54,934 nucleotides of DNA from positions 1 through 54,934 of the forward strand of contig CAZCAJ010000023.1 in NCBI GenBank assembly GCA_964496645.1, in the 5' to 3' direction. The stretch comes from an uncultured Opitutaceae bacterium. GTDB taxonomy: Bacteria; Verrucomicrobiota; Verrucomicrobiia; Opitutales; Opitutaceae. Under the pieces are notes generated by a model. That model searched no databases and was not told where the DNA came from. It saw nothing but the letters and a program-made list of their open reading frames with translations. The position numbers and the translations under genes are program-made. This document shows, piece by piece, positions 41,415-49,592 of this stretch (position 1 is its first letter; every line of letters begins with the position of its first letter).

Positions 41415-41810
41415 GTGAACGGGCGCCAGAACGTCTCGTCGGGCACGGCGTGGGAGCCGATCGTCGGCTACTCCCGCGCGGTCCGCGTCGGCTCGGTGGT
41501 CCACGTCTCGGGCACCACGGCTACCGGCGCGGATGGCAAGATAGTGGGCGCCGGCGACCCGTACCGCCAGACGGTGCAGGTCCTGAGGAACATCGAGTCG
41601 GCGCTGGCCCGCGCCGGCGCGTCCCTGCAGGACGTCGTGCGGACGCGCATCTATGTCATGGACATTTCCCAATGGGAGCACGTGGGCCGGGCCCACGGGG
41701 AGGTTTTCAAGGAGATAAGGCCGGCCACGAGCATGGTGGAGGTCAGCAGGCTCATCTCCCCCGAGATGCTCGTGGAGATCGAGGCCGAGGCGATAATCAT
41801 CCGGATGTGA
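41415..41810 (+). CDS. RidA/YjgF/TdcF-family protein (reactive intermediate deaminase family)
   Basis: 131 aa; GTG start immediately after an in-frame stop; VHVSGTTA and [10 protein letters not shown] motifs typical of the Rid family. Confidence 0.75.
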
Positions 41811-42906
41811 GGCCGCGCGCCGGCGGCGGCGCGCCCCCTCCCGGGCCCCGGGCCTGGCCCTTCCCCGCGGAGAGTATCTGCGCCGTCCAGCGGCGGTGGG
41901 GTCCGGACAGGGCGATCGAGCCCAGGTCCCCGAGGCGGACCCAGACCAGGCCCGGGCCCGGCCTCGCACCGGGGCGGCGCACCGAATGGATCGACTCCGC
42001 GATCCGGAAGCGCGTGATCCCGCGGATATTGCGAGCGATGAGCGGCCCCTCCGCGACGCGCGCCGGATCGAGTCCCGCCTGGCGAGCGGTGGGGAGCTCG
42101 TGGAGGTCGGCAAGGCGGCGCGCGCCGGGACCGTTGCGGTGCAGGAGCACCGCGCCGGCCCTCTCGCACCACACCCGGACGACCGACCTCCGCTCGGTCC
42201 GCCTCGCCTCGAGCCTGGGAAAGGCCTCGGGGTCGCCAGCCGAGGCGCTGGCGCAGAACCCCCGCACCGGGCAGGCGGGGCAGGAGGGCCGCCGCCTCAC
42301 GCACACGGTCGCGCCCAGCTCCATCATCGCCTGGTTGTGGTCGCCGGGGTCGGCGGGATTGACGAGCTCCTGCGCAAGCGGAGCGAACGCCCTCGACGCC
42401 GATGCGCCGTCCGTGAACCGGGTCCCGTCCCGGCTGAGGCGGGCCAGGATCCGGACCACGTTGCCGTCAACGCATGCGGCGCGATCGCCGAAGGCGATGC
42501 TCGCGACCGCGGCCGCGGTGTAGGGGCCGACGCCGGGAAGCTCATCCCATCCGGCCGCGGTGCGCGGCAGGGACCCGGCGCGCGCCACCTTCCTCGCGAG
42601 CCGGTGCAGGTTGCGGGCGCGCGAGTAGTAGCCGAGTCCCTCCCAGAGCTTCAGGACCAGCGCCTCGGGGGCGGCCGCGAGCGCCTCGAAGTCCGGAAGC
42701 GCCTCCATCCATCGGGCGAAGTAGGGCAGGACGGTGGCCACCTGGGTCTGCTGGAGCATGAATTCGCTCACGACGGTCCGGTACGGCGAGGGCGACTCGC
42801 GCCAGGGCAGCGGGCGCCGGCACGCCCGGTACCAGGCGAGCAGGGCTGCCTGGAAGGCCGCGCGCCGCGCCACCAGGGCGCCCCGGGCGGAAGTTTTGCG
42901 TGTCAT
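41797..42906 (-). CDS. mutY: A/G-specific adenine DNA glycosylase MutY
   Basis: HhH-GPD core ([12 protein letters not shown]); [4Fe-4S] cluster loop [17 protein letters not shown]; C-terminal NUDIX-like domain; 369 aa. The 3' end overlaps the RidA gene 3' end by 14 nt (convergent). Confidence 0.88.
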
Positions 42907-42936
42907 TGGCGCCAATTCTGCGAGTATTGGTCCGTC

Positions 42937-43944
42937 ATGCCCAAGCGCGGCCAGCACGACGAGGAAAAACCCAAGGCGCTGAGCACCTACACGCTCAAGC
43001 TCGACGACGCACAGATGGAGAGGCTGCGCTCGATCCTGAGCGGTCGCGGCTGGGAGTCGTTTGACGTCGCCTACGCGCGGTACGCCTTCAGGGGGAGGGA
43101 CTGCAACGTCACCGCTTACGAGAGCGGAAAGCTGGTCGTAGCCGGCAAGGGGACGGAGGAGTTCGTGACGATGACGCTCGAGCCCGAGGTCACCAAGAGG
43201 CCGGCGCTCGGGTACGACGAGGTCCACCACCCCGAGTGGTTCGAGCCGCACGCCGGCCTCGACGAGAGCGGCAAGGGCGACCTCTTCGGGCCCGTCGTGG
43301 CCGCTACGGTCATAGCGGACCGGCCGGCGATCGACGGGTGGATCAAGGCGGGCGTCAAGGACTCGAAGCGGATCGCAGAATCCCAGATCATCAAGCTCGA
43401 CAAGCTGATCCGCGCGACCCCCGGGACGGCCGTGGCCACCTGCCTCTGCGGGATGCACCGGTACAACGTCCTCATGCTGCGGCCCCACGCCAACCTGAAC
43501 CGGCTGCTCGCCTGGCAGCACGCGACGGCGCTGTCCCAGGCCCTGTCGAGGAAGAAGGTGCCCTGGGGGCTGCTCGACCAGTTCAGCAAGCAGCCGCTCA
43601 CCCAGCGGGAGCTCTCCAAGATGGGGATCAAGGACTTCGACCTGAGGATGCGCACCAAGGCCGAGGAGGACCCCGTGGTCGCCGCGGCCTCCGTCGTCGC
43701 ACGCGCCGAGTACGTTCGCCAGATGCATTCGCTCTCCAGGCGCTTCGGCGCGACGCTTCAGAAAGGAGCCGGGCCCGTCGCCAAGGAGCAGGCGGCGCAG
43801 GTCATCGCCCGCTTCGGCGCGGGCGCACTGGGCGACTTCGCCAAGCTCCATTTCCGGACGTCCTACGAGGTCGTCCTCGCCGCAGGAAAGCTGGACGAAC
43901 TGCCTCTTCCCGAGCCCAAGGAGCGGGTGGAGTGGCGGGGGTGA
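42937..43944 (+). CDS. rnhC: Ribonuclease HIII
   Basis: N-terminal DUF3378/TBP-like domain, then an RNase HII-fold with the HIII-specific active site GLDESGKGDLFGP; 335 aa; divergent from mutY with a 30-bp gap. Confidence 0.8.
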   Translation: MPKRGQHDEEKPKALSTYTLKLDDAQMERLRSILSGRGWESFDVAYARYAFRGRDCNVTAYESGKLVVAGKGTEEFVTMTLEPEVTKRPALGYDEVHHPEWFEPHAGLDESGKGDLFGPVVAATVIADRPAIDGWIKAGVKDSKRIAESQIIKLDKLIRATPGTAVATCLCGMHRYNVLMLRPHANLNRLLAWQHATALSQALSRKKVPWGLLDQFSKQPLTQRELSKMGIKDFDLRMRTKAEEDPVVAAASVVARAEYVRQMHSLSRRFGATLQKGAGPVAKEQAAQVIARFGAGALGDFAKLHFRTSYEVVLAAGKLDELPLPEPKERVEWRG

Positions 43945-43966
43945 GGGGGAGGCGCGCGTTTGCCCG

Positions 43967-44728
43967 ATGCCGAAACGCCGACAGCTGCGCAGCTTCGACC
44001 TGAAGAAGATTGAGGGTTTCGAGAGCCTGATCGGCGTGGACGAGGTCGGCCGCGGAGCGCTCGCTGGCCCCGTCGTCGCCGGCGCCGTCCTGGTGACGCG
44101 CGATTTCCTCGAGGGCCGCTGGGCCGTGTACAAGTCCGGGCGCGTCAACGACTCGAAGCAGCTCTCCGCCCCGGAGCGCGAGGCGCTCTGGGGCGAGTTC
44201 GAGGCGCTCGCGACCCAGGGGCAGATCCACGCCCACTACGGCTCGGCGAGCGTTGAGGAGATCGAGCAGCACAACATCCTCGGCGCGACCAAGCTGGCGA
44301 TGCGCCGGGCGATGGAGGGCATCTACCCGGTCGCCGCCTTCCGGCGCAGGGACGAGCCGGACCTGTTCTCCTCGGTCGAGGAGAGGGAGTCGTTCGTCCC
44401 GGCCGTCTCCTGCCGCGTGCTGGTCGACGGGCTGCCGCTCAGGGGGTTCCCGTACCCCCACACGGCCGTCGTCAGGGGCGACTCGCGGTCGCTCTGCGTC
44501 GCGATGGCGTCGATCATCGCCAAGGTGGTGCGGGACCGGATGATGGCGGAGCTTGACGCGGCGTACCCCGGGTACGGGTTCGGCAGGCACAAGGGATACG
44601 GGACCGACGACCACCGCGAGGCGGTGATGAGGCTGGGGCGCAGCCCCATCCACCGGGAGGTCTTCCTGCGCAAGCTGCTCGCCCAGCGGGTGGATCCGGA
44701 CCAGATGGATTTTCTTCCCGGCCGTTGA
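43967..44728 (+). CDS. rnhB: Ribonuclease HII
   Basis: GVDEVGRGALAGPVVAGAV active site and the DSK motif; 253 aa; lies 22 nt after rnhC. Confidence 0.88.
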   Translation: MPKRRQLRSFDLKKIEGFESLIGVDEVGRGALAGPVVAGAVLVTRDFLEGRWAVYKSGRVNDSKQLSAPEREALWGEFEALATQGQIHAHYGSASVEEIEQHNILGATKLAMRRAMEGIYPVAAFRRRDEPDLFSSVEERESFVPAVSCRVLVDGLPLRGFPYPHTAVVRGDSRSLCVAMASIIAKVVRDRMMAELDAAYPGYGFGRHKGYGTDDHREAVMRLGRSPIHREVFLRKLLAQRVDPDQMDFLPGR

Positions 44729-44751
44729 CCCCCGGGGCCGCGCGGGCAAGA

Positions 44752-45924
44752 ATGGCGGTCATGGCCGGAAAGAAACACACCTCGCTCGACCGCGTGCTGG
44801 GGCGGCTCGACAGCCTCGACTCCGTCGGCCTGACAAACCTCGTCCAGCGCCTGGCGAGGGAGCGCACCCTCCTCGAGGAGATCTTCAACACGCTCCAGGA
44901 GGGGGTCCTCGTGATAGCCGCTGACGGGACGATCGAGTACGCGAACGACGCGGCCCACCGCCTCATGGGGTTGGACGGCGACCGGCTCGCCGGGCAGACG
45001 CTCTGGCGGCTCGTCCCCGGGCTGCGGTCCTCGCTCGGCGGGGACGGGAGCGCCGGCGTCCAGGCGGTCTCGCGCGAGTTCGAGCTTTCGTACCCCGAGC
45101 CGCGCACGGTCAGGTTCTACATGGTCGCGCTGCGCGAGGAGGGAGGCGGGGCGCGCCGACGCGCGGTGATCCTCGCCGACGTCACCCCGGAGAAGCTGGC
45201 GACCGCCAGGCGCATAGAGGACGAGCGCACCTCGTCGATCCTCCTGCTTGCCGGCGGCGTGGCGCACGAGCTAGGCAACCCGCTCAATTCGCTCGGGATC
45301 CACCTTCAGCTGATCGCCCGCAAGCTGAAGCGGTTCAAGGGCAGCGCGCAGGTCGACTCGATCGCGGAGTCGGTCGGCGTATGCCGCGAGGAGGTCGGGC
45401 GCCTCGACCAGATCGTCACCAATTTTCTCGAGGCGGTCCGCCCTCGCCCCCCGGACCTGGCGGAGACGAACGTGGCGGACGTCCTGGCCGAGGTCCTCAG
45501 GTTCCAGAAGCGCGAGTTCGCCAATCGGGGGATAGCCGTGGAAGCCGAGACGCAGGCCTCGCTCCCGAAGGTGTTGGCCGACCGCGGCCAGCTCAAGCAG
45601 GTGTTCTTCAACCTGACGAAGAACGCGATGGAGGCGATGCAGCCCGGGGGCAGGCTAAGGATCAGGTCGCGCGCGGACGACGACTCGGTCTACCTCGTCT
45701 TCGGCGACAGCGGCGCCGGGATACGCGAGGAGGACATGGGCAAGCTTTTCCGGCCGTACCACACGACGAAGCCCGGGGGCCACGGGCTCGGGCTGACGAT
45801 CGTCCAGCGGATCATGCGCGCGCACGGCGGCCAGGTGGGCGTGGAGAGCAGCGAGGGGATCGGCACGGTCGTCACGCTCCAGTTCCCCCGCAAGGACCGG
45901 AGCGTGCGGATGCTGCGGGGCTGA
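44752..45924 (+). CDS. Cytoplasmic sensor histidine kinase (PAS - HisKA - HATPase_c), NtrB/AtoS-like
   Basis: No TM segments; PAS region (EEIFNTLQEGVLVIAADGTIEYAN); H-box HELGNPLNS; N-box FFNLTKNAMEAM; G-boxes DSGAGI and GGHGLGL. First ATG at 44752; an in-frame TTG at 44725 overlaps the rnhB stop. Confidence 0.8.
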   Translation: MAVMAGKKHTSLDRVLGRLDSLDSVGLTNLVQRLARERTLLEEIFNTLQEGVLVIAADGTIEYANDAAHRLMGLDGDRLAGQTLWRLVPGLRSSLGGDGSAGVQAVSREFELSYPEPRTVRFYMVALREEGGGARRRAVILADVTPEKLATARRIEDERTSSILLLAGGVAHELGNPLNSLGIHLQLIARKLKRFKGSAQVDSIAESVGVCREEVGRLDQIVTNFLEAVRPRPPDLAETNVADVLAEVLRFQKREFANRGIAVEAETQASLPKVLADRGQLKQVFFNLTKNAMEAMQPGGRLRIRSRADDDSVYLVFGDSGAGIREEDMGKLFRPYHTTKPGGHGLGLTIVQRIMRAHGGQVGVESSEGIGTVVTLQFPRKDRSVRMLRG

Positions 45925-46547: not shown

Positions 46548-46705
46548 GTTTGATGCGCGCCTGCGCGGCCGGTCCCGCCGCAATCGAACGGGGTGGACAC
46601 GCGGGTCGACGGAAGGTTGCATGGGGCGTGCTCTTGCGCCAATGGTAAAAGCGCATCTTTCCGACCCGATCTACGTCTGGTCGGTCATAGAGCAATGGCA
46701 AACGC

Positions 46706-47251
46706 ATGGATGAAAGTTCACCGACCACGCTGGGTGCCCGGGTTCGCCGGGCGCAGCGCGGGGACGAGGCCGCACTGCGCGAGCTCATTGTGTCCTACCA
46801 GCACCGCGTTGCCGGGTTCACCTACGCCATCACCGGGAGGAGCGACTCCGTCGAGGACCTCGTCCAGATGGTGTTCGTCAAGGTGGCGCGCTCCATCGCC
46901 CGGCTCAAGGCGCCCGACCAGTTCGAGCCGTGGCTCTTCCGGCTCGCCCGCAACACCTGCATCGACCACCTGCGGCGGCAGAAGCTGCGCCGGATCTTCA
47001 TCCCCTTCGCTCCCGAGCACGAGAACGTGCCCGAGCCTGCCGGGGCCGTCGACGCGGAGGAGCTCGACGCGCTCCGGCACGCGCTCGCCCAGCTCCGGCC
47101 CAAGGACCGCGCGCTCGTCGCGCTGGTTCAGGAGGGCCGCAGCCACGCCGAGATCGCCGAGAGCTTCAACACGAGCGTCGCTGCCGTGAAGGCTCGCCTC
47201 CACCGCGCGCGCGAACAACTTAGACAACACTACCAAAGCGATGAGAACTGA
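46706..47251 (+). CDS. ECF-subfamily RNA polymerase sigma-70 factor
   Basis: Sigma-70 region 2 (LVQMVFVKVARSIARL...FEPWLFRLARNTCIDHLRR) and region 4 (HAEIAESFNTSVAAVKARLHRAR); 181 aa. Confidence 0.88.
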   Translation: MDESSPTTLGARVRRAQRGDEAALRELIVSYQHRVAGFTYAITGRSDSVEDLVQMVFVKVARSIARLKAPDQFEPWLFRLARNTCIDHLRRQKLRRIFIPFAPEHENVPEPAGAVDAEELDALRHALAQLRPKDRALVALVQEGRSHAEIAESFNTSVAAVKARLHRAREQLRQHYQSDEN

Positions 47252-48212: not shown

Positions 48213-49592
48213 ATGGTCCCAAGCGTGCTCATCGTCGACGACGAGAAACACACCCGCGAGGGCCTTCAGCAGGCGCTCGCGGAGAACTACGACGTGAGCG
48301 TGGCCGCGAACGCCGACGAGGCGTTCAACCTGATGGACGCGCAGCCCTTCGACGTCATCCTCACGGACCTTAGGATGCCCGGGAAATCCGGCCTGAGGGT
48401 GATCGACCGCGCGCTCGCCCTGCCGAACAAGCCGGCCGTCCTGATGATGACGGCCTACGGGAACATCGACACGGCAGTGGAGGCGATGAGGAGGGGGGCG
48501 GTGGACTTCCTCACGAAGCCGGTCAACATCGAGCGTCTTGACGTGCTCATCCGCCGGGCGCTGAAGACGAAGACCCTCGAGGTGGAGGTCAAGCAGCTCC
48601 ACGAGCGCCTGGACGAGAAGTTCGACCTCGAGGGGATCGTCGGGAACTCGCCGCTCCTCAAGGACGTGGTCGAGACCGCGAAGAAGGTCGCGCAGTCGAA
48701 GGCCACGGTCCTCATCGAGGGCGAGTCGGGCACGGGCAAGGAGCTGATCGCCCAGGCGATCCACCAGTCGAGCCCGCGCTCCAGGGGGCCCTTCGTCGCC
48801 GTCCACTGCGCGGCGCTTTCCGAGAGCCTGCTCGAGAGCGAGCTCTTCGGGCACGAGAAGGGCTCGTTCACGGGCGCCACGGAGCGCCGCATCGGGAGGT
48901 TCGAGTCCGCGGACGGCGGGACGCTTTTCCTTGACGAGATCGGCGAGGTCTCCCCGGCGATCCAGGTCAAGCTGCTGCGGTTTCTGGAGACCAAGTCGAT
49001 CGAGCGGGTGGGGGGCTCTAAGACGCTGACCCTGGACGTGCGCCTGGTGACGGCGAGCAACCGGAGCCTGGAGCAGCTGGTTCGCGAGGGCAAATTCCGA
49101 GAGGACCTGTTCTTCCGCCTGGACGTCGTGCGCTTCGTCATGCCGCCTCTGCGCCAGAGGAGGGAGGACATCCCGGAGCTCCTCGCCCATTTCATTAGGC
49201 TTTTCTCGGAGGAGAACGGAGTCCCCCCGATCGAGATCGAGCCGGGGGCGATGAAGACGCTCCAGACCTACCCCTGGCCCGGGAACGTCCGCGAGCTGCG
49301 CAACTTCTGCGAGAACGCGGTCGTGCTCCGCAAGGGGGGAAAGCTGACCGAGTTCGACCTCGATCCCCGGTTCCGCGGGGCGCCCGGCTCGGCTCCGTCG
49401 GCGGGCGGAACGGCGGATGCCGGCTCGGCGTCGACCCTTTCGGTGGAGCAGAACGAGAAGCGCATCCTAAGGGAGGCGCTCATCAAGTCGCGCGGCAACC
49501 GGACCAAGGCCGCGGAGATGATGGGCATTAGCCGGCGGACGCTCCACCGCAAGCTGGCCCAGTGGCCCGAGCTCGATGTGACCGATAAATGA
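48213..49592 (+). CDS. Sigma-54-dependent two-component response regulator (NtrC family: REC - AAA+ - HTH)
   Basis: REC domain with the conserved Asp; Walker A GESGTGKE; the sigma-54 contact motif (ESELFGHEKGSFTGA, GAFTGA-type); C-terminal Fis-type HTH; 459 aa. Confidence 0.92.
   Translation: MVPSVLIVDDEKHTREGLQQALAENYDVSVAANADEAFNLMDAQPFDVILTDLRMPGKSGLRVIDRALALPNKPAVLMMTAYGNIDTAVEAMRRGAVDFLTKPVNIERLDVLIRRALKTKTLEVEVKQLHERLDEKFDLEGIVGNSPLLKDVVETAKKVAQSKATVLIEGESGTGKELIAQAIHQSSPRSRGPFVAVHCAALSESLLESELFGHEKGSFTGATERRIGRFESADGGTLFLDEIGEVSPAIQVKLLRFLETKSIERVGGSKTLTLDVRLVTASNRSLEQLVREGKFREDLFFRLDVVRFVMPPLRQRREDIPELLAHFIRLFSEENGVPPIEIEPGAMKTLQTYPWPGNVRELRNFCENAVVLRKGGKLTEFDLDPRFRGAPGSAPSAGGTADAGSASTLSVEQNEKRILREALIKSRGNRTKAAEMMGISRRTLHRKLAQWPELDVTDK

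Follow-up and report, generated by a model that had tools for sequence, protein, structure and literature searches.

The stretch of DNA analyzed here, hereafter the window, comprises 54,934 nucleotides (positions 1 to 54,934 of contig CAZCAJ010000023.1, assembly GCA_964496645.1) from an uncultured Opitutaceae bacterium, and contains a compact cluster of genes for DNA maintenance. In this cluster mutY, coding for an A/G-specific adenine glycosylase, lies head-to-head with rnhC, coding for ribonuclease (RNase) HIII, and rnhC is followed by rnhB, coding for RNase HII, and by the gene of a histidine kinase (Table 1). Open reading frame (ORF) analysis and profile searches confirmed the coordinates and identities that a first-pass annotation, made from the letters alone, had given to mutY, rnhC and rnhB, and the 30-bp gap that it had noted between mutY and rnhC proved to be exact. 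Comparison with related loci shows that mutY and rnhC, in their divergent arrangement, have long been retained together by selection in Verrucomicrobiota, the phylum of the window's nearest relatives, which are named Opitutaceae; the two genes are probably co-regulated through a repeat element found in the spacer between them. The G+C content of the window is about 69%. The metagenome-assembled genome GCA_049509175.1 contains the same locus, as do contigs from peatland metagenomes.

Table 1. Coordinates of genes and sequence elements at the mutY/rnhC locus of the window (aa, amino acids).
Feature	Position	Strand	Size	Basis or remarks
RidA gene	41415-41810	+	131 aa	ORF analysis and profile searches
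mutY (A/G-specific adenine glycosylase)	41797-42906	-	369 aa	ORF and profile searches, homologue alignment
Degenerate copy of the rnhC-proximal element	42894-42927	+		Position weight matrix (PWM) score 16 bits, best in window; orthologous alignments
mutY/rnhC intergenic gap	42907-42936		30 bp	Exact
Putative mutY promoter-like elements	42915-42944	-		As read from the sequence
rnhC (RNase HIII)	42937-43944	+	335 aa	N-terminal TBP-like/DUF3378 domain and type 2 RNase H domain
rnhC-rnhB spacer	43945-43966		22 bp	
rnhB (RNase HII)	43967-44728	+	253 aa	Profile searches, homologue alignment
Second RNase HII insertion	about 44105-44134	+	~10 aa	Residues 47-56; alignments
Lineage-specific RNase HII insertion	44324-44416	+	roughly 25 aa extra	Residues ~120-150, relative to Thermotoga RNase HII; two-stretch alignments
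Sigma-70-like element TTGACC-N17-AAGAAT	44725-44753	+		Consensus scan
PAS-HisKA-HATPase histidine kinase, cytoplasmic, AtoS/ZraS-like	44761-45924	+	387 aa	Length from conserved start

The first of the two ribonucleases is, by its sequence, a true RNase HIII and not a second RNase HII, the alternative that the first-pass annotation had left to be settled by alignment. RnhC scores 179.9 against TIGR00716 (cut-off 161.2), with residues 20-308 matched to a model of 284 positions, and every RNase HII model remains far under its cut-off; the N-terminal DUF3378 domain (PF11858) is recovered over residues 20-78 with a score of 27.7 against a cut-off of 27. Residues 16-313, with the N-terminal domain included, align to the Geobacillus (Bst) RNase HIII (PDB: 2d0a/3asm), and the DEDE tetrad of the latter (D97, E98, D202 and E232) corresponds to D109, E110, D214 and E243 of the window protein, which are invariant among 13 homologues. 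The GKG motif is situated at residues 112-114. A search for known RNA families returned nothing beyond a weak Rfam match to the Streptomyces-metK RNA inside the rnhC coding region (43495-43611; 23.2 bits against a gathering threshold of 44.2, E = 0.29), which is most likely due to chance.

The assignment of the second enzyme to RNase HII is likewise upheld: RnhB scores 185.6 against NF000595 (cut-off 167), and its DEDD site (D25, E26, D154 and D172), the G28-R29-G30 motif and Y211 are intact and align to the Thermotoga maritima enzyme (PDB: 3o3f/3o3g). PF01351 matches it (E = 1.2e-33) in two stretches separated by an insertion, one of the two listed in Table 1; judged by alignment length, these insertions are also present in the clade with 49-61% RnhC identity, and they are absent from the solved structures of bacterial RNases HII. 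The two ribonucleases share just one 65-residue local match with each other (42% identity, E = 8e-8). A recent tandem duplication was accordingly rejected as the source of their adjacency, and the sequences point to RnhC and RnhB being old paralogues. In the TBP-like domain and DEDE tetrad of the one and the DEDD site, GRG motif and tyrosine of the other, the pair resembles the type 2 RNases H of Bacillus subtilis and Geobacillus. It differs from them in the two insertions of RNase HII and in the adjacency of the genes, since in B. subtilis rnhC and rnhB are not known to be linked or to adjoin mutY. The first-pass annotation had regarded the possession of both enzymes as restricted to some lineages and in itself remarkable. 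This is not so, because HII plus HIII was found in a survey of 353 genomes to be one of two standard combinations ('group C', 16 of 235 bacterial species, or 7%), the usual one wherever bacteria have HIII (PMC1950709). The same survey reported RNases HI and HIII to be mutually exclusive (PMC1950709); according to another account, RNase HIII arose from bacterial HII and has a patchy distribution (PMC3597702).

In MutY the HhH-GPD domain is matched, the similarity to Geobacillus stearothermophilus (Gs) MutY is strong (E = 1.5e-59), and both catalytic residues (E48 and D147) are present, as are the Fe-S cluster cysteines C202, C209, C212 and C218. The protein narrowly misses the curated cut-off of the TIGR01084 equivalog model (262.9 against 286.5); since it falls much further short with the Endonuclease III models (42.9 against a cut-off of 211.7), MutY stays the best assignment. 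The Pfam NUDIX_4 model finds no match in the C-terminal domain of the window protein or of its 120 closest homologues. However, an AlphaFold model (mean predicted local distance difference test score, pLDDT, 78; mostly 72-92 in the C-terminal part) superposes on full-length MutY and on human MUTYH over about 350 columns, with template modelling scores of 0.72-0.77, and not on the core fragment alone, so that the NUDIX-like domain is taken to be present, though divergent. Where the 8-oxoguanine (8-oxoG)-reading FSH loop is expected, the predicted beta-hairpin turn at residues 297-299 reads I-T-R by eye, the HMMER alignments having ended at residue 282; I297 and R299 are invariant, and T298 nearly so. 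The protein shares with Gs MutY and MUTYH the catalytic glutamate and aspartate, the 4Fe-4S cysteines and the two-domain fold, but differs in a C-terminal domain too divergent for NUDIX_4 and, as judged by eye, in the I-T-R read where FSH would be expected. Its C-terminal tail (residues 350-369, 41797-41856) extends about 20 residues beyond most relatives (369 versus ~349 aa) at a pLDDT below 50, and brings the 3' end of mutY into a 14-bp overlap (41797-41810) with the RidA gene, which runs toward it. All three enzymes are thus members of well-known families, and what is known of their chemistry is unchanged.

The gene order was investigated in three collections of loci: those around rnhC in 80 species-level genomes, a further 80 from metagenomes, for which distant RNase HIII sequences had served as seeds, and 7 retrieved by exact protein look-up. 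MutY, RnhB and the kinase were sought by tblastn in 168 loci, with counts taken only over loci that had enough flanking sequence, and the loci were divided by the identity of their RnhC to that of the window into class A (at least 62%, Opitutaceae-like), class B (49-61%) and class C (38-48%, some from organisms named 'Verrucomicrobia bacterium'). Three patterns of conservation were apparent: 1) mutY is divergent from and adjacent to rnhC in 100 of 108 loci of class A, 14 of 18 of class B and 23 of 29 of class C. 2) rnhB lies at most 260 bp downstream of rnhC in 79 of 100 and 12 of 18 loci of classes A and B, and in none of 24 of class C. 3) The kinase follows rnhB in 64 of 81 loci of class A, in none of 9 of class B and nowhere in class C. 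Genes flanking the pair vary by lineage. These clade-wise counts, together with the changing flanks, identify the head-to-head mutY/rnhC pair as the durable unit, to whose 3' side rnhB was added later and the histidine kinase last. The linkage of mutY, to which the first-pass annotation had drawn attention, is therefore not accidental: the pair is kept from Opitutaceae to lineages whose RnhC is only about 40% identical. The co-transcription of rnhC and rnhB that it had proposed is plausible in the window, where 22 bp separate the genes, but 11 of the 100 informative class A loci have rnhB 261-1200 bp 3' of rnhC, and the distant clades lack the adjacency.

Several departures from the common arrangement were encountered. 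In about ten class A loci a gene of ~165 aa on the opposite strand fills the gap between rnhC and rnhB (L024, L029, L031, L041, L046, L050, L072, L073 and L084); the N-terminal part of its product is predicted to contain a hydrophobic segment, after which comes the conserved stretch EQRKERxNEEEEIFQRLSDEYREFLKLVLDNADLQLLRR, and a search for tRNAs in these enlarged gaps found none. In two other class A loci, L014 (6885-7934) and L016 (6903-7898), mutY is directly upstream of rnhC on the same strand, still adjacent to it; here the kinase ORF and rnhB share about 20 nt, the repeat element described below is absent before rnhC, and mutY, rnhC, rnhB and the kinase could form one operon. Four loci of a distant clade (L089, L090, L091 and L093) have, 3' of rnhC, a gene for an HU-family DNA-binding protein and a convergent gene for a dCache hybrid histidine kinase, and no rnhB. 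In L092 (1-4002), from a distant member of the Verrucomicrobiota, mutY is directly 3' of and convergent with a mutagenesis cassette of ImuB-like (IMS_C) and DnaE2-like (PHP/DNA_pol3_alpha) genes. In the literature we found no description linking mutY to RNase HIII by gene order. In Escherichia coli the operon mutY-yggX-mltC-nupG likewise embeds mutY in a conserved multigene arrangement, but one that is co-directional, has other partners and lacks both an RNase H gene and the divergent layout.

A T-rich repeat element was recognized in the spacer of the pair; of 75 non-redundant Opitutaceae genomes, about 68 have it in front of rnhC. TTTTGYG(C) boxes, between one and three in number and with a period of ~10-11 bp, make up the element, the final box being extended to TTTTGYGGCCAW. 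The first T of this final box is 19-22 nt 5' of the rnhC ATG, and TGYGGCCAW forms the end of the element, leaving 6-10 nt up to the start codon, in which no Shine-Dalgarno sequence lies. A PWM built from the rnhC-side copies was run over both strands of the flanking DNA, which was sampled to about 8 kb either side of a locus and totalled 1.1 Mb. At 18 bits or more it yielded 79 matches; 68 of them precede rnhC, 9 precede mutY, being on the other strand, and the remaining 2 are located elsewhere. A relaxed pattern, TTGYG-N15-20-GGCYAW-N4-11-ATG/GTG, gave 28 matches, all at the starts of rnhC (20) or mutY (8), against 3 matches, none with an ORF, in the reversed-sequence control. Typical mutY-side copies read CTTGCGCC-N10-CTCTTYGCGGCCAAT-N7-ATG or TTTTGTGYC...CTTCGTGGCCA. 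Consistent with a mirrored layout, the two arms form an imperfect inverted repeat; in class A 31 of 84 spacers, and in class C 7 of 23, surpass all 20 shuffles in this respect. In distant lineages the same layout is filled by other repeats, namely CGTTSRR heptads, ATCTGTG...TGTGGC or TTCGTCATT, which within the loci are confined to the spacer save for two single matches and an extra cluster at the mutY 3' end in L090.

Pairs of divergent, co-regulated genes with mirrored operators are a general theme in bacteria. The present arrangement conforms to it in that the same element precedes both head-to-head genes in opposite orientation; it departs from it in that the sequence of the element varies by lineage while the layout stays constant, and in that the element is neither the LexA box of Verrucomicrobia nor the promoter of the neighboring extracytoplasmic function (ECF) sigma factor. 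Several further identities for the element were tried and rejected. It does not appear to be a generic promoter of the family, as neither the element nor a strict sigma-70 pattern precedes other genes in the 1.1 Mb of flanks; the element is also not enriched in the window. The promoter of the neighboring ECF sigma factor reads differently, GAATCTTTC-N16-CGTCT, and sigma-28-like or sigma-32-like readings of GGCCAW misfit, by eye, in both the spacing and the -35 region. A resemblance to DnaA boxes, by which the reverse complement TTGGCCACA agrees with the high-GC box TTGTCCACA at 8 of 9 positions, is no more than an idea, half of the genomes having TGCGG instead.

In the clade of the window, at least nine species-level genomes have a spacer of exactly 30 bp and a MutY that starts with MTRK(T/S)S. 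The degenerate rnhC-side copy of the element places the box TTTTGCGTG (42894-42902) within mutY codons 2-5, and ends in the extended -10-like TGCGAGTAT (42919-42927), 9 nt before the rnhC ATG, again with no Shine-Dalgarno sequence in between; this copy may serve as the rnhC promoter. On the minus strand, CAGAAT (42920-42915) lies 8 nt before the mutY ATG and TTGGGC (42944-42939) a further 18 nt upstream, within rnhC codons 1-3; across the 30-bp clade the A/T-rich hexamer corresponding to the former reads CAAAAT, CAAATT or CAATTT. Were both elements to act as promoters, their -10 regions would overlap by 2 bp, and polymerases would then be expected to compete for the spacer rather than share one promoter. 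Two other readings of this spacer were discarded. A sigma-54 promoter, TGGCGC-N5-CTGC at 42907-42921 (consensus TGGCAC-N5-TTGC), is not conserved, since the closest relatives have GT for GC and other Opitutaceae lack the GG. A perfect palindrome, ATTGGCGCCAAT (42905-42916), considered as an operator, is specific to the species, its relatives reading ATTGGCGGCAAT or ATTGGCGTCAAA.

At the other end of the cluster, the first-pass annotation had begun the kinase at ATG 44752, 24 nt after rnhB, or at the in-frame TTG 44725, which overlaps the rnhB stop codon. Both codons are where it placed them, but the alignment of orthologs most likely moves the start to ATG 44761, a position occupied by ATG in 59 and by GTG in 2 of 62 loci and used in the 387-aa form annotated by NCBI; with this conserved start the kinase probably does not overlap rnhB. 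The sigma-70-like element before it was the one site returned in 6 kb by the consensus scan, against 0.3 expected. Its TTGACC (44725-44730) contains the rnhB stop TGA (44726-44728), and its AAGAAT (44748-44753) ends 7 nt before ATG 44761, a geometry that suggests a leaderless kinase mRNA. In 23 of 62 loci TTGACC-N17-CAnAAn begins 35-38 nt before the conserved start, and it stays beside the kinase even in loci where rnhB is more than 100 bp away. Because a conserved sigma-70-like element thus recurs at a fixed distance from a conserved ATG, the kinase is most likely a transcription unit of its own with its own promoter. No terminator was found between rnhB and the kinase, so read-through from rnhB may occur.

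From these observations we propose a housekeeping DNA-maintenance neighborhood centered on the conserved pair, in which mutY and rnhC(-rnhB) are probably co-regulated via the shared repeat element, a reading to which we attach somewhat better than even confidence. mutY and rnhC(-rnhB) would be transcribed divergently from two gene-proximal promoter/operator modules, both carrying one lineage-specific repeat element, and the same factor, acting on this shared element, would probably set the expression of both genes; the geometry of the element, whose end lies 6-10 nt before the start codons in Opitutaceae, points to leaderless or near-leaderless mRNAs. In the clade of the window the spacer would have collapsed to 30 bp, so that each module overlaps the other and also extends into the first codons of the gene opposite. 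The 22-bp gap makes it probable that rnhB is co-transcribed with rnhC in the window, while the kinase would be expressed from its own promoter, with a -35 hexamer spanning the rnhB stop codon. Of the regulatory ideas in the first-pass annotation, that of coordination thus fares well, as mutY and rnhC often have the same upstream element, in keeping with coordinated control, whereas a single shared bidirectional promoter probably does not exist, the data fitting two separate gene-proximal elements. MutY and type 2 RNases H both act after replication, and the arrangement could serve a joint post-replicative clean-up of 8-oxoG:A mispairs and of RNA embedded in DNA. In mycobacteria, loss of RNase H2 sensitizes cells to peroxide; embedded oxidized ribonucleotides were raised as a cause, and the question was asked whether MutY acts on them (PMC5224475). 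A more ambitious version, which we regard as speculative and rather doubtful, would have a two-gene mutY/rnhC regulon throughout the Verrucomicrobiota, in which a fast-evolving DNA-binding factor acts on mirrored iteron-like arrays and couples 8-oxoG:A repair to the removal of RNA, such as oxidized ribonucleotides or primers, with a fused 30-bp switch in the clade of the window.

A number of points weigh against co-regulation, and some of them favor a simpler account in which the gene order was inherited without any coupling, the motif is a conserved orthologous rnhC promoter and its resemblance to sequences before mutY is incidental. The rnhC-side copies are all orthologous and hence not independent observations. 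A mutY-side copy is recognizable in about 20-30 of 75 genomes (clear in roughly a quarter of the Opitutaceae) and undetectable in the clade of the window, where the rnhC-side element is itself degenerate, at 16 bits; it is here that the case for co-regulation is weakest. In two Puniceicoccales loci, rnhC stands beside neither mutY nor rnhB. Moreover, the element is specific to the locus with respect to sampled flanks of about 8 kb per side rather than whole genomes. The calls of promoters, transcription starts and leaderless mRNAs all derive from sequence geometry, and, as the canonical A at -11 is missing from the -10-like hexamer GGCCAW, the element may not be a sigma-70 promoter at all. Inheritance without coupling nevertheless appears unlikely to us: the pair is still found where RnhC identity has fallen to ~40% and both flanks are different, adjacency survives in L014 and L016 even with mutY on the same strand, and mirrored arms recur with sequences that differ between lineages, which is hard to explain by inheritance alone. 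We consider it more improbable still that the mirrored repeats are, instead of promoter/operator modules, a long inverted repeat forming a DNA cruciform or an RNA hairpin in the 5' untranslated region, or selfish palindromic elements. Arms of 19-32 nt with loops of 20-80 nt do occur in L061, L090, L091 and L169, and some spacers (e.g. L034, L024 and L046) hold other, unrelated perfect palindromes; but each arm is internally made up of direct repeats, which keep a fixed distance from the start codon on their side; the rnhC-side arm has been retained where its counterpart is lacking, the 30-bp clade included; and within the sampled flanks the repeats are not scattered over other places.

The promoter/operator modules also have to be set against an operon model, in which rnhC, rnhB and the kinase share one transcript, the kinase belongs to the repair unit and a single bidirectional promoter serves this transcript and mutY. 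The short gaps (22 bp and 23-32 bp), the want of a terminator-like site between rnhB and the kinase, the frequency with which the kinase follows rnhB in Opitutaceae (64 of 81 loci) and the overlap or near abutment of the two ORFs in, for example, L014, L016, L029, L034 and L055 all agree with it. Yet TTGACC-N17-CAnAAn, 35-38 nt before the kinase ATG in 23 of 62 loci, tracks the kinase beyond 100-bp gaps; the kinase is missing from the locus in both deeper clades; and in 14 of 81 class A loci it is not beside rnhB, the measured gaps reaching 0.4-6.8 kb. We accordingly view this model as rather unlikely. The placement of the kinase on the rnhB transcript, as suggested in the first-pass annotation, is thus disfavored by a conserved sigma-70-like element of its own and by its restriction to Opitutaceae, even though no terminator intervenes; it is better regarded as a late neighbor, probably with its own promoter. 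That annotation had further suggested looking for LexA-like boxes in the gap, which would bring the locus into the SOS/LexA regulon, an idea with which the mutY neighboring an imuB-dnaE2-like cassette in L092 would agree. However, no TGTTC-N4-GAACA with up to 2 mismatches, the LexA motif of Verrucomicrobia, occurs in or near 42800-43000, and the window as a whole holds 5 such matches against 9.45 expected; the Opitutaceae LexA regulon comprises at most two operons, with mutY unmentioned (PMC4951493). We therefore deem SOS control highly improbable.

The linkage of mutY to rnhC is, in sum, real and probably regulatory. The arrangement is not a new kind of system: it is built of known enzymes and constitutes a modest lead from comparative genomics. 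Its novelty is comparative, lying in a divergent mutY/RNase HIII pair that is kept across deep Verrucomicrobiota and survives the rearrangement of its neighbors, with matching repeats on both sides of the spacer. Pair and repeats together offer a testable hint that the phylum co-regulates oxidative-mismatch repair with the removal of RNA/DNA hybrids.

The region 3' of the kinase holds a convergent small gene, an ECF sigma/anti-sigma cluster and an NtrC-type response regulator. The latter, a sigma-54-dependent NtrC-family protein encoded at 48213-49592, 2.3 kb 3' of the AtoS/ZraS-like kinase, could be the partner of this kinase, with the ECF sigma cluster between them. Approximately 45-75 nt 5' of the start of the ECF sigma gene (46706-47251) there is a motif, (G)AATCTTTC-N16-CGTCT, that is conserved and resembles an ECF-type promoter. 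The region that contains it, about 46600-46705 in the window, occupies the same place in L007-L085, and a further conserved block, TTGCGCCAATTGAAAAAGCGCA, is found upstream.

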